A stretch of 64,000 nucleotides of DNA from an uncultured bacterium (GTDB lineage Bacteria > Patescibacteriota > Minisyncoccia > Phycocordibacterales > UBA6065), in contig CBIMES010000001.1 of the NCBI GenBank assembly GCA_966243015.1, positions 214,837-278,836 on the forward strand. Reading direction: 5' to 3'. Made by a program: the position numbers and the translations under genes. Positions 30,439 through 47,407 of this stretch are shown piece after piece (the first letter of the stretch is position 1; each line of letters begins with the position of its first letter). The notes below the pieces were generated by a model. That model saw only the letters and a program-made list of their open reading frames with translations, ran no database searches and was not told the origin of the DNA.

Positions 30439-30675
30439 CTAATTGTCCGAGCTTCGGCTGTCCTCGTCGGCGGCGTGGCTGTGGGCTCGGTTGCTTTCGA
30501 TGACGGCGTGAAATATGCCCGTCACGATGGCTGTCACGACGCTGCCGATGATCAGGTAGAAGCAAAGCGGGTTATCCGTGATGCTCCCGCCTTTTGACGT
30601 GGCGGCAATGATGCCGCGAATGCCGAAGGCGAAGACAAGAAACGAAGCGAGGTAGGTGAGGAATACGTAGTGCAT
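30439..30675 (-). CDS. small hypothetical membrane protein (78 aa, 2 TM helices)
   Basis: ORF-track ORF with two hydrophobic helices. An AT-rich divergent promoter region (30676-30785) is shared with rplI. Confidence 0.4.
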   Translation of the reverse strand: MHYVFLTYLASFLVFAFGIRGIIAATSKGGSITDNPLCFYLIIGSVVTAIVTGIFHAVIESNRAHSHAADEDSRSSDN

Positions 30676-32773: not shown

Positions 32774-32802
32774 TTGACAATTCAATCGCAAGGTGCTACA
32801 AT
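32774..32802 (+). promoter_or_regulatory. consensus sigma70-type promoter TTGACA-17-TACAAT, followed by a ~100-nt leader before the gene at 32907
   Basis: Reads ctaTTGACAattcaatcgcaaggtgcTACAATat. The leader contains a 7-bp hairpin (atcagagttaatcctctgat). Coordinates approximate. Confidence 0.5.
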
Positions 32803-42881: not shown

Positions 42882-43985
42882 TTATTTTAGCATATACCGG
42901 GATATGTTGAGCAGGATGCCCGCCTGGCCTAGGGCGAACAAGAGCGCCGTTCCTCCCTGGCTCACGAACGGCAGCGGGATGCCCGCGATCGGCAGGATGC
43001 CAATCATCGAGCCGATGTTGATGAATGCCTGGCAGATCATGAAGGTGGCGACGCCGACGATCACGTACGCGCCGAACGGGTGGCTCGACCTATTGGCGAC
43101 GACGAACGAGCGCAGGGTGAAGGAGACGAAGAGGGCGATGAGGGCGGTGCTGCCGATGAGGCCGAACTCTTCTGCTGCCACGGCGAATATCGAGTCGCCG
43201 ACAGGCTCGGGCAGATAGTTGAACTTCTGTATGCTCTGGCCGAATCCCCTGCCGTCGATGCCTCCCGACCCCACGGCGATGAGCGACTGCTGGATTTGGT
43301 ATCCCGAGCCAAGGCCGTTCTGGGCAGGATTAAGGAAGGTGTTCACGCGCGAGGCGATGTAGTCCGACGTCATGTACACCGCGCCAAGGCCAAGGGCGCC
43401 TGTGACGCCGAGGGCGATGACCCAGCGCCACTGCCCTCCCGCGGCAAGGTACATGGCCGTCAGGGCCACGATGATGACGGCAAGGGTGTCGTGGTCGGGC
43501 TGCGCCAGAAGGAGCATCGAGACGATGGCGATGATGATCAGAAGCGGCAGGAATCCCTCCTTGAATGTAGAGACCCTTTCCCGCACCGAGGAAAGCCATG
43601 CGGCAAAATAGAGGACCGCGCCGATTTTGAGCATCTCGGACACCTGGAACGTGAATCCGCCGAGGTCTATCCAGCGCGTCGCGCCTCCGTGCGAGAAGCC
43701 AATACCGAGCCACGGTATGAGGATGAGGATGTTGAGGATGATGGCGAGCAGGAATATCCAGAATGACATCTTTCGCCAGTAGAGGAAGTGAATCCTCGAC
43801 GTTGCGTAAAGGGCGACGAGGCCGGGCACGAGGCCGAAGAAGATCTGCCTGAAGGCGATCGAGCCAAACTGTACCGAGTCGCGCGACAGGAGGCCGAGCG
43901 ACGCCGAGAGAAAGATGAGGAAGCCCGCGCCCGCGAGGAGGAGGATCGATATAAGGAGCTGTCTGTCCATGCGGGCCTTTTTCAT
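42882..43985 (-). CDS. ftsW: SEDS-family peptidoglycan polymerase FtsW/RodA
   Basis: 10 TM helices with conserved SEDS segments (…GATRWIDLGGFTFQVSEMLKIGAVLYFAAWLS…, …PDHDTLAVII…). The internal Met start is supported by an extended -10 (TGaTATGAT) 7 nt upstream on the minus strand. Confidence 0.85.
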   Translation of the reverse strand: MKKARMDRQLLISILLLAGAGFLIFLSASLGLLSRDSVQFGSIAFRQIFFGLVPGLVALYATSRIHFLYWRKMSFWIFLLAIILNILILIPWLGIGFSHGGATRWIDLGGFTFQVSEMLKIGAVLYFAAWLSSVRERVSTFKEGFLPLLIIIAIVSMLLLAQPDHDTLAVIIVALTAMYLAAGGQWRWVIALGVTGALGLGAVYMTSDYIASRVNTFLNPAQNGLGSGYQIQQSLIAVGSGGIDGRGFGQSIQKFNYLPEPVGDSIFAVAAEEFGLIGSTALIALFVSFTLRSFVVANRSSHPFGAYVIVGVATFMICQAFINIGSMIGILPIAGIPLPFVSQGGTALLFALGQAGILLNISRYMLK

Positions 43986-44041
43986 GAGCATCATCATATC
44001 AGTGAGAGGCGAAATCAAAAAGTGTCTGCTAGAATATTTAC

Positions 44042-44440
44042 ATGAAAATCATCAATAACATTCTTCGAGTTTTGCTCGCTCTGCTTCTCGTAAGCCCTAT
44101 TCTCGGCACTCTCGGCGTCTTCCCCGCCCCGACCGCCGACATGTACAACACAGCGGCTGGCTGGAACTTTATCCAGGCGCTCTACGCGGTACCGTACATC
44201 ATGTACGTCATGGCCGCGGTCTTTGCCGTCGCCATCGGCCTTATCGTTACTAACCGTATGGCCCTCGCCGCGCTCCTCATTCTCCCTATTACGGTGAATA
44301 TCATTGGCTTCCACGCCTTCCTCGACGGCGGCCTTCTTACCGTGGGCGCCATCATGGCGAACGCCCTCGCCCTCATCAACATTTACTTCCTCTGGAGGAG
44401 CCGTGGCGTGTACCGCATTCTCCTCGCCAGGAACGGCTAA
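44042..44440 (+). CDS. hypothetical membrane protein (132 aa, 4 TM helices)
   Basis: ORF-track ORF. An extended -10 (TGcTAGAAT) sits 6 nt upstream of the ATG, and a terminator follows at ~44455-44490. Confidence 0.55.
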   Translation: MKIINNILRVLLALLLVSPILGTLGVFPAPTADMYNTAAGWNFIQALYAVPYIMYVMAAVFAVAIGLIVTNRMALAALLILPITVNIIGFHAFLDGGLLTVGAIMANALALINIYFLWRSRGVYRILLARNG

Positions 44441-44549
44441 GCATCATCTTGTCGTTAAAGGGCCCCGTCCGCATGCGGACGGGGCTTTTGTTGCTGCCTT
44501 TCGGTCATTATTTTCATAACCCCTCCCCTGTTTTCATAAAAAAGCCCGC

Positions 44550-44962
44550 GGATTATGTCCGGGGCTTTTCGAGGTTAGGATCGCTGTACAGGTGACAGGC
44601 GATCTGGTCTCATCGTCATTTTTCGCGGTGCGGAGCGTGGCATATGTCTATCCGCAGCGCGTACGATGGGTCTGGATTTTTAGTCCGGACACCTCCAGGA
44701 TGGGTCGCCGTTTGGCATACCTCGCCCTGCACAGAGTTGCTGCGTTTGCTTGCGTCGTGGTGTGACGCTGAGCAGCGCAAACTCAATGTGTACCAGTTTT
44801 TGTGTCTCGTTTTCCGTTGATGATGGCAATCTTAGGCCTCATTCTTTCATCGGTGCCGCGTCTTATCGCGGCCATCCATCATCATCCGTCCCTTTGGAGA
44901 GGCGCAAGTCATGAAAGATGACTCAGCGCGCTGCTTGCGGAAAACAATCTCAAAGAACCTAC
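44550..44962 (-). ncRNA. candidate ~400-nt non-coding RNA of unknown family, defined by a consensus promoter and an intrinsic terminator, immediately downstream of the dacA-like gene
   Basis: Minus-strand TTGACA-16-(TGc)TATAAT promoter at ~44970-44997. No ORF >35 codons on either strand between 44581 and 45001. Terminator hairpin (gccccggacataatccgcgggc + TTTTTTAT) at ~44547-44580. Confidence 0.35.
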
Positions 44963-44969
44963 AGTGAGT

Positions 44970-44997
44970 ATTATAGCATGACCATAAAAATTGTCAA
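44970..44997 (-). promoter_or_regulatory. full consensus promoter TTGACA-16 nt-TGcTATAAT on the minus strand
   Basis: Minus-strand reading gives ctgTTGACAatttttatggtcaTGcTATAATactcac, directly after the stop of the gene at 45002..45955. Coordinates approximate. Confidence 0.5.
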
Positions 44998-45001
44998 CAG
45001 T

Positions 45002-45955
45002 CTAGCGAGAGCTCTCGGTCTGGCCAAGGTATTCGACCGTAGAACCTACCAGTTGAGCCATATCCTGGAATCTCCCGTCGTAGGTCGAGCCGAGGACCGC
45101 GATGATGACCGGGTGGTTGAGGCCGGCGTCGAACGCCACGACCAGGTTGCCTCCCGAGAGGTCGGTGAAGCCCGTTTTGGACGCGATGACGTTGGGAATC
45201 ATGTTAATTGCCTTGTTGGTGTTCACGGCGCTGTGGCTCTCGGTCTGCGAGGACACGTTGATTTGGTCGAATGCGGTCGCTTCGAGAAGGTGGGGCTTGG
45301 TCCTGAGGATGTGGCCGACCAGGAGCGCCATGTCCTTGGCGGATCCGTACCCGCCCGAGAGCGTCGGCGACACGTCGAGGCCCGACTGGTTGAGGAAGTA
45401 GGTCTGGTAGAGGCCGAGCGACTTTGCGGTGTTGTTCATCTCCTTGACGAAGGCGCTCACAGCTGACGAGGTGGCGTCGACGGTGAGGAAGGCGCCGGCG
45501 ACCGACGCGAGGGCGCGCGACCCGTCGTTCGATGAGACTACGAGGCTAAAGTCGAGAAGGTCCTTCATAGCCCACTGCTCGTTCGGCACGAGGCCGCTGT
45601 CCCCTTCCTCGCCGAGGTCGCTTGGACTGATGCGGACGATGTCCTTGTCGGGCAGGAGGTTCGAGACTGTGAGCGCGGTCATGACCTTGGTAAGCGAGGC
45701 GAGCGGAAGCTGAAGGTCCGCATTCTTGTCGTAGATGACCTCGCCGGTCACTGTGTCGTAGACGTAGGCCGACGTCGCGAGGATCGCGGGCGGCGTGAAG
45801 GACGCTTTGGTCGATGTCGCGGCCTCGGTCGTGTCGACGAGTATGACGCCAGGTTCCACGGGCACTTTCTCGGGATATACCCACCACAAGAAAAGACCTA
45901 CGCAGAGGCCGAGGGCTCCGAGTTCTATGAAGGCTATGGTCTTAGGCTTGATCAT
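45002..45955 (-). CDS. dacA: D-alanyl-D-alanine carboxypeptidase (S11 peptidase, PBP5/6-like)
   Basis: SxxK (…LASLTKVMTAL…), SxN-type motif (…VVSSNDGS…) and KTG (…ASKTGFTDLSGGN…) motifs. N-terminal membrane anchor. Confidence 0.8.
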   Translation of the reverse strand: MIKPKTIAFIELGALGLCVGLFLWWVYPEKVPVEPGVILVDTTEAATSTKASFTPPAILATSAYVYDTVTGEVIYDKNADLQLPLASLTKVMTALTVSNLLPDKDIVRISPSDLGEEGDSGLVPNEQWAMKDLLDFSLVVSSNDGSRALASVAGAFLTVDATSSAVSAFVKEMNNTAKSLGLYQTYFLNQSGLDVSPTLSGGYGSAKDMALLVGHILRTKPHLLEATAFDQINVSSQTESHSAVNTNKAINMIPNVIASKTGFTDLSGGNLVVAFDAGLNHPVIIAVLGSTYDGRFQDMAQLVGSTVEYLGQTESSR

Positions 45956-47336: not shown

Positions 47337-47407
47337 GGTCGCGTTTGCCATCGGAAAGACCGGCGCCTTACCCGCGTTGGCCGGGGGTTCAATTCCCCTC
47401 GCGATCA
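47337..47407 (+). other. tRNA-like element: canonical T-arm (GGGGG-TTCAATT-CCCCT), 7-bp acceptor stem (GGTCGCG/CGCGATC), U8, A14 and GG in a D-loop-like segment, but no canonical D or anticodon stem
   Basis: Read by eye. The GGTTCAATTCC T-loop consensus is unique in the window. The central 37 nt cannot be folded into standard D and anticodon arms (position 37 would be C), so this may be a degenerate tRNA, a pseudogene or a tRNA-like structure. Confidence 0.25.

Follow-up and report, generated by a model that had tools for sequence, protein, structure and literature searches.

A putative family of large structured non-coding RNAs between dacA and ftsW in Patescibacteria

Bacterial RNA classes of several hundred nucleotides (nt) with a conserved multi-junction fold number, to our knowledge, only about a dozen, and the large multi-junction classes solved so far are ribozymes or ribonucleoprotein (RNP) scaffolds. 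OLE, the raiA motif RNA, ROOL and GOLLD, all of which have Rfam entries, are stand-alone RNAs of several hundred nt with many covarying helices; unpaired nucleotides are conserved in their multi-way junctions, their phylogenetic range is narrow and their function is not obvious. The element described here resembles them in each of these respects. It is a predicted RNA of ~426 nt, encoded on the minus strand between dacA and ftsW in a 64,000-nt stretch of DNA from an uncultured patescibacterium (contig CBIMES010000001.1, positions 214,837 to 278,836; the whole stretch is called the window below). It differs from them in having no match in Rfam 15, in its occurrence in Patescibacteria and its dacA-ftsW context, and in a more variable size, with a whole 5′ domain gained or lost.

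The Patescibacteria, or Candidate Phyla Radiation (CPR), make up a large share of bacterial diversity and have tiny genomes, and we know of almost no experimentally characterised non-coding RNAs from them besides rRNA, tRNA and divergent RNase P. The searched literature contained no account of an RNA such as the one described here. The element is very likely a novel structured non-coding RNA gene, and probably an independent gene for a highly transcribed, stable and intricately folded RNA, whose family has not been described before and is confined to one clade of Paceibacteria (Parcubacteria, CPR). As a new family of large structured non-coding RNA in Patescibacteria, it is well supported at the level of the gene and the fold. 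A first-pass annotation of the window had taken the interval for a promoted and terminated structural RNA, either a divergent member of a known family or a new one, and our analysis supports this overall reading.

Promoter, terminator and coding potential

The local gene order is scpA-scpB-dacA-RNA-(132-aa membrane open reading frame (ORF) on the other strand)-ftsW-murG-gltX. The gene upstream of the RNA, annotated earlier as PBP5-like, is indeed dacA (45002-45955, minus strand; Pfam PF00768), encoding a PBP5/6-type D-Ala-D-Ala carboxypeptidase, and relatives of its protein are labelled Candidatus Paceibacterota, Parcubacteria or Taylorbacteria. The RNA promoter (44997-44970, minus strand) starts 4 nt past the dacA stop codon and has the reported arrangement TTGACA-16-TGcTATAAT, scoring 12/12 with an extended -10; the expected frequency of a near-identical promoter pattern is 0.14 per window. 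Contrary to the assertion that this promoter is unique in the window, a whole-window scan found an equal 12/12 match with the TG at 30735-30708 (minus strand), and also a 12/12 promoter without the TG at 2407-2379 (minus strand). The former drives a 78-aa membrane ORF (30439-30675) that has its own terminator, the latter a small ORF that shows a clear Shine-Dalgarno sequence, and a near-consensus promoter is also present at 32774-32802 on the plus strand.

The intrinsic terminator proposed for the RNA is likewise present, as a hairpin at 44570-44544 (-18.2 kcal/mol, z = -5.0) followed by U6 at 44543-44538. A simple terminator scan overlooked it because of one bulged C in the stem. Promoter and terminator are conserved in the four alignable homologues discussed below (loci L085, L086, L088 and L176), where the terminator hairpins reach -15.7 to -24 kcal/mol in four of four, and a TGnTATAAT or TGnTATACT element is kept in about 20 loci. 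The nhmmer profile alignment spans 44963-44538. Promoter, terminator and intervening RNA thus recur at the equivalent position in relatives, which is more than would be expected by chance. The annotation had named as a possible refutation that the interval is simply the 3′ untranslated region of an scpA-scpB-dacA operon, with a fortuitous promoter-like sequence. This is contradicted by the conservation of the promoter and by L086, where a 447-aa gene separates dacA from the RNA and the RNA promoter is retained, so that the RNA is not a dacA 3′ untranslated region.

The interval had also been described as free of ORFs longer than ~30 codons. This is incorrect, as ORFs of 49-58 codons occur on both strands (e.g. 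44644-44820, plus strand, 58 aa, with an ATG start); however, a comparison of sense and antisense ORFs across the homologues found none that is conserved. Matches to peptides from the window ORFs are confined to L085, where they occur in several overlapping frames and on both strands, which indicates nucleotide conservation rather than coding. ORFs that begin at the conserved UUG of the 5′ motif (see below) give unrelated peptides of 2-69 codons, and the indels among homologues are not multiples of three. The non-coding interpretation therefore stands against a conserved small protein gene. An mRNA for a small protein would be in keeping with the small ORFs behind the other consensus promoters of the window, with the ORFs of up to 58 codons and with the conserved UUG as a conceivable start; against it are the absence of a Shine-Dalgarno sequence, the indel pattern, the disparity of the UUG peptides in sequence and length, and a translated similarity confined to the closest relative. 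Such an mRNA seems to us extremely improbable, and so does a non-functional remnant behind a fortuitous promoter, against which the covariation and a conservation above the neutral level also speak.

The relation of the RNA to ftsW bears on whether it might act in cis. In loci with and without the RNA, ftsW has a TGnTAnnnT element 5-8 nt before its ATG and no Shine-Dalgarno sequence (seen in the window, L005-L009, L012, L020, L021, L085, L088, L093 and L176); the window copy, TGATATGAT-7-ATG, lies at 43985-44005 on the minus strand. This pattern suggests that ftsW-murG may be transcribed as a leaderless mRNA in the clade. The RNA terminator is situated 20-50 nt ahead of ftsW in about 20 loci, while in three cases (the window, L085 and L088) the two are separated by other genes and by a second, bidirectional terminator (44461-44486 in the window), and the next gene after the RNA in the window is convergent (the 132-aa ORF, 44042-44440, plus strand). 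Given the promoter of ftsW at leaderless distance and these intervening genes and terminator, the RNA appears to be its own transcription unit.

If the RNA acted in cis on ftsW-murG, whether as a long leader or riboswitch or by conditional read-through that occludes the ftsW promoter, this would explain the position of the terminator directly upstream of ftsW in so many loci, and the RNA of L016, which stays with ftsW at ~2 kb from dacA. A UCCUU segment within the RNA has two mutually exclusive partners, in hairpin He or in a long-range GAGG/CCUU pairing, and could act as a switch. Neither of these alternative pairings touches the terminator stem. However, the terminator is strong, with a perfect U6, and no riboswitch family of Rfam matches 44350-45150 or L176 at E≤10. 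Since an extended -10 of its own precedes ftsW at leaderless distance, since in three loci including the window there are genes and a second terminator in between, and since a read-through mRNA would probably be poorly translated given the lack of a Shine-Dalgarno sequence before the ftsW ATG, we consider a cis-acting role very unlikely. A plain ftsW leader was rejected on account of the conserved promoter at leaderless distance, present in loci with and without the RNA.

Homologues, fold and distribution

The window RNA has a minimum free energy of -153.8 kcal/mol (z = -5.47 versus shuffles). As the first-pass annotation had proposed, relatives were compared downstream of dacA, and both conservation and covariation were found, with an alignable RNA in four contigs. 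Searched with nhmmer, the window RNA finds L085 (E = 3e-31), L086 (2e-17) and L088 (4e-7), and the DacA proteins of L085, L086, L088 and L176 are 87%, 77%, 71% and 66% identical to that of the window, respectively. L176 is a minimal homologue of 262 nt (z = -6.06) that keeps all elements except the 5′ domain, P2 having a 3-nt loop instead of the ~150-nt domain; this domain is therefore a dispensable expansion. RNA sizes in the window group range from 262 to 462 nt. The identity between the window RNA and that of L085 is 0.67, compared with 0.42-0.51 at the four-fold degenerate sites of scpB, dacA and ftsW, which are near saturation between these two loci, and the RNA is by this measure under purifying selection. 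No alignable copy of the window RNA was found in any of the 80 loci of the genome scan, the DacA proteins of which are at most 68% identical to that of the window, and in the protein-anchored metagenome scan most of the closest relatives from the protein search were absent among the matches listed. Two more contigs that were looked up also yielded no new RNA.

The five alignable sequences share one order of segments, namely P1, P2, Ha, Hb (with Hb3), a GAGG-containing segment that carries a GCC/GGC hairpin, He, Hf, Hg (with Hg2), Hh and the terminator (Table 1). The fold supported by covariation is a core of ~220 nt, consisting of the P1/P2/Ha/Hh junction and a multi-helix 3′ domain closed by UGGU/ACCA, and lineage-specific peripheral domains are added onto this core. 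P1, P2, Ha and Hh are separated by at most one linker nt and thus form a four-way junction, which P1 tentatively closes through its UAG/CUA pairing, the CUA being part of a conserved CCUAAC motif. The invariant blocks of the homologues, as read from the alignments, are CACAAAAACUGGUACAC, AAUGACGAUGAGACCAG and CCUAAC, the first two of which contain Ha. The 5′ strand of P2 belongs to the family-wide 5′ motif UAGGUUCUUUGA, which is seen in all groups of loci, including those described below that can not be aligned with the window.

Covariation was scored on an alignment (A7) of concatenated helix strands, with the ten named helices merged into eight helix blocks. Standard pairs are formed in 93.1% of 216 cells and 20 of 44 pairs change on both sides, statistics that favour the model, as its helices were hand-picked from the same five sequences. 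None of 500 shuffles equalled the model, and sliding the partners by 1-3 columns reduced the paired cells to 26-43%, with one or two two-sided pairs. The best-supported helices are Hb with Hb3 (merged block 4), where 98% of cells are paired and seven of ten pairs change on both sides, Hh, Hf and He (Table 1), Hg/Hg2, where two of nine pairs do so, and P2. Single positions illustrate the changes: at the third pair of P2 three sequences have U-A and the other two A-U, pair 6 of Hg alternates between U-A, C-G and U-G, and the inner helix Hg2 (CGC/GCG) has C-G in four sequences and U-A in L176. RNAalifold predictions on MAFFT alignments, made independently of this model, contain Ha, Hb, Hf, Hg and Hh. 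MAFFT misaligned the helix strands of the 3′ part, and a covariance model for it was dropped on that account. A pseudoknot is possible, as the ACACC of the Hb3 loop complements GGUGU and, in L086, the CUCC of that loop complements GGAG.

Table 1. Predicted features of the RNA gene in the window
Feature	Position	Strand	Remarks
-35 hexamer TTGACA	44992..44997	-	kept in L085, L086, L088, L176 and positional analogues
Extended -10 TGcTATAAT	44970..44978	-	TATAAT at 44975-44970; preceded by 16-nt spacer ending TGc
Predicted RNA, ~426 nt	44538..44963	-	inferred transcription start ±2 nt; 3′ end is the U-tract
5′ peripheral domain, multi-branch insertion inside P2	44802..44952	-	absent from L176
P1 (weak, 3 bp), CUA with 5′ UAG	44576..44578 with 44961-44959	-	no covariation
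P2, GUUCUU 44958-44953 / AAAAAC 44801-44796	44796..44958	-	encloses optional 5′ domain
Ha, UGGU 44795-44792 / ACCA 44608-44605	44605..44795	-	closes 3′ domain
Hb, CACAU 44790-44786 / CUGUG 44734-44730	44730..44790	-	
Hb3, apical hairpin within Hb	44768-44752	-	loop ACACCAC
He, hairpin CAUC[CUGGA]GGUG	44690..44702	-	2/4 pairs change on both sides, both via L088
Hf, hairpin UCCGGA...UCCAGA	44671..44689	-	3/3 outer pairs change on both sides; absent in L088
Hg, CAUCGU 44668-44663 / ACGAUG 44616-44611	44611..44668	-	variable interior
Hh, hairpin AUCGC...GCGAU	44580..44603	-	5/5 pairs with two-sided changes in one or more sequences
Intrinsic terminator	44538..44570	-	A-tract, 12-bp hairpin with one bulge, U6

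About 17 further loci, with DacA proteins 51-68% identical to that of the window, carry a similarly promoted and terminated, structured RNA of 240-390 nt, which contains no conserved ORF, at the dacA-ftsW position. Sixteen of these positional analogues are complete (L171-173, L020, L094, L095, L021, L024, L018, L019, L012, L015, L016, L010, L092 and L022); L178, where the contig ends after the promoter and the 5′ end of the RNA, was not folded. Their promoters, TTGACA-16/17-TGnTATAAT or TGnTATACT, are found after dacA or 280-470 nt before ftsW. The 16 complete analogues fold better than shuffles, with z values of -1.6 to -6.7, which is also the range of all 20 RNAs folded when members of the window group are included. 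The analogues share the 5′ motif UAGNUCNUUGA and a CUAA(A)C motif ahead of the terminator, and have a general layout in common, with a GGU-containing single strand between a 5′ hairpin domain and a 3′ domain; L012 in addition has CCCAUCCUUGAGGU in common with the window group. The combination of promoter, UAGGUUCUUUGA-like motif, CUAAC with terminator and dacA-ftsW position is found in the window, its four homologues and the 16 analogues, and on these shared features the positional analogues are probably homologues of the window group.

Known RNA families and proposed function

At gathering score, Rfam 15 recognised no RNA in the whole window. The Rfam scan for RNase P, tmRNA, signal recognition particle (SRP) RNA and 6S, advised in the first-pass annotation, gave only chance matches on 44350-45150 at E≤10, driven by two terminator hairpins. 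Chance matches were again all that was found on L176 at the same threshold, with no RNase P, tmRNA, SRP RNA or 6S, and none of these four was detected in nine related loci scanned whole at E≤5. ARAGORN found no tmRNA in the window (its only hit being a tRNA-Val at 47337-47407), and the 3′ end of the RNA is a terminator hairpin, with no acceptor or T arm as in tmRNA. The annotation's inability to place the RNA in RNase P, tmRNA or SRP is thus borne out by Rfam and ARAGORN. Conserved regions CR-I (GAGGAAAGUCC) and CR-V (ACAGAA..GGCUUA), which form P4 of RNase P RNA, have no counterpart among the invariant blocks. The RNase P-like strings that had been noticed, and judged out of order, namely GUCCGG, AGGGCGAGGUAUGC and GCACCGCG, fall in helix Hf, in segment v3 and in the interior of Hg; as these segments vary or covary among homologues, the strings are not equivalents of RNase P conserved regions. 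For SRP domain IV it is also relevant that GUCCGG sits in a hairpin, Hf, the sequence of which is not conserved. The RNA showed no blastn similarity to phage and plasmid collections, and a mobile or viral origin was rejected, the one pattern match in IMG/VR being attributable to chance.

The possibility that the element is RNase P RNA, tmRNA or SRP RNA in a highly divergent CPR version nevertheless deserves consideration. The size fits rnpB or ssrA, and Rfam found none of these RNAs elsewhere in the window. Like RNase P RNA, the element has long-range helices and a conserved core with helices at its periphery that vary, and its GGU/ACCA element recalls CCA recognition; unlike RNase P RNA, it lacks CR-I and CR-V, matches no model and is not universal among relatives. 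RNase P RNAs of the CPR are divergent, fall below Rfam thresholds and lack some helices (Lui et al. 2021, PMC8172020). However, they retain conserved features and were still recovered with RF00010 at lowered thresholds in that study (PMC8172020), whereas here not even a weak match was obtained with the thresholds given above. As the RNA is also absent from the locus in many close relatives, and shows undetectable sequence similarity between relatives with DacA proteins ~50-70% identical to that of the window, we regard a hidden universal RNA as highly improbable.

A functional analogue of 6S or Ms1, i.e. an abundant polymerase-binding RNA with a modulating effect on global transcription, would share with the element a strong housekeeping-type promoter, presumed abundance, dispensability in some genomes and a structure that outlasts sequence drift, weak sequence conservation with retained structure being typical of 6S. 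No 6S RNA of Patescibacteria is described in the literature searched. The element differs, however, in its consensus fold, which is multi-branched instead of a rod with a large central bubble resembling an open promoter, and in its length, the 262-462 nt of the window group exceeding that of a typical 6S RNA; neither the covariance model RF00013 nor a related one matched the region or L176 (E≤10) or the nine loci (E≤5). We therefore think such an analogue quite unlikely.

What the RNA does may be approached through its expression signals and its mode of evolution. Very strong promoters are typical of stable RNAs, and from such a promoter together with the protective 3′ hairpin we infer that the RNA accumulates to high levels; that a minimal genome has this RNA behind one of its strongest promoters suggests importance to the cell. 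The sequence of the RNA drifts fast between relatives. Its junction nucleotides are conserved and whole peripheral domains are gained or lost, which points to a function that depends on shape and not on a linear seed. The RNA may act in trans, as a scaffold or partner of one or more proteins, and would then be an RNP component or a sequestering RNA in the manner of 6S, OLE or raiA-type RNAs. Although we hold it only tentatively, this shape-dependent, protein-binding role is the most likely of those considered.

The RNA could instead be a long base-pairing riboregulator of the RNAIII type, in which UAGGUUCUUUGA or pyrimidine-rich stretches pair with mRNAs, e.g. at Shine-Dalgarno regions, and the remaining fold serves mainly for stability. 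The element resembles RNAIII-type RNAs in its several hundred nt, its many hairpins, its own promoter and terminator and its pyrimidine-rich motifs; the ~15 nt at the 5′ end are the only sequence element common to all groups, as in many small RNA seeds, and the family evolves fast, is specific to its lineage and can be dispensed with at the locus. Across the 21 candidate RNAs, CCUC, CUCC and UCCU occur 156 times versus 97.6 expected from dinucleotide shuffles (z = 5.6), and GGUUU occurs 24 times versus 7.2 (z = 6.9), z values that are inflated by the relatedness of the sequences; the complementary GGAG-type words are not enriched over the same shuffles. On the other hand, there is no embedded ORF as in RNAIII, and the CU motifs are not in predicted accessible loops (mean accessibility of CU tracts 0.35, versus 0.36 on average). 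The 5′ motif contributes the 5′ strand of the covarying P2, the UUGA part is missing from L176, and the complement of the motif has nine matches in the window versus 11.4 expected, the sole perfect one being the gene itself. Many covarying helices and conserved junctions would moreover be unusual for a pure seed-pairing RNA, and we judge the riboregulator unlikely. Were the RNA only a clade-restricted riboregulator, it would still be the first described for the group, with modest general interest.

A more far-reaching reading is that the RNA is the founding member of a large, complex-folded, CPR-specific class, the core of which would be a ribozyme or an essential subunit of an RNP and no simple regulator. 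We judge this reading unlikely as well. Such a ribozyme or RNP RNA would possibly be tied to envelope growth or division, given its fixed place among scpAB, dacA, ftsW and murG.

Several points weigh against an abundant structured RNA of a wider family with a protein partner. Transcription, abundance and ends of the RNA are predictions. There are only five distinct alignable sequences (the window, L085, L086, L088 and L176), from which the helices were also chosen, and P1 and Ha, being invariant and without covariation, are uninformative either way. nhmmer profiles detect no similarity between the window group and the other groups, and the breadth of the family rests on synteny, promoter and short motifs. 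In 14 loci dacA and ftsW are less than 60 nt apart, with no RNA, and three other groups of loci (L005, L089/L091 and L174) hold a protein gene instead, suggesting that the RNA is dispensable at this site or has been relocated. Finally, the neighbourhood holds no gene for an obvious RNA-binding protein.

Other features of the locus

Several minor features surround the RNA gene. The 132-aa ORF that separates the RNA from ftsW is hydrophobic, lacks a Pfam match and recurs in L088. Directly past the RNA terminator, a 20-codon mini-ORF (44455-44517, minus strand; MKIMTERQQQKPRPHADGAL) is preceded by a strong Shine-Dalgarno sequence, GGGGAGGGG, and its 3′ half coincides with a bidirectional terminator hairpin at 44461-44486; L085 and L088 showed no such mini-ORF at the corresponding position. 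The tRNA-Val (anticodon TAC, plus strand) is the sole tRNA of the window and lies at the 5′ end of the region readable as an scpA ORF, on the opposite strand. A weak match to a T-box leader (35.4 bits, E = 3e-4; gathering score 93) is found in the flank of L020, at 693-830 on the plus strand.

A protein of 414-452 aa is encoded in the dacA-ftsW gap of L086 (4061-5404), L005 (5004-6362), L089 (4073-5317) and L174 (2156-3457). Pfam gave no match for any of these four copies, nor did PDB sequences for that of L086, the one copy searched there. The gene precedes the RNA in L086 and replaces it in L005, L089/L091 and L174. Gene insertion seems to have a hot spot in the dacA-ftsW gap.

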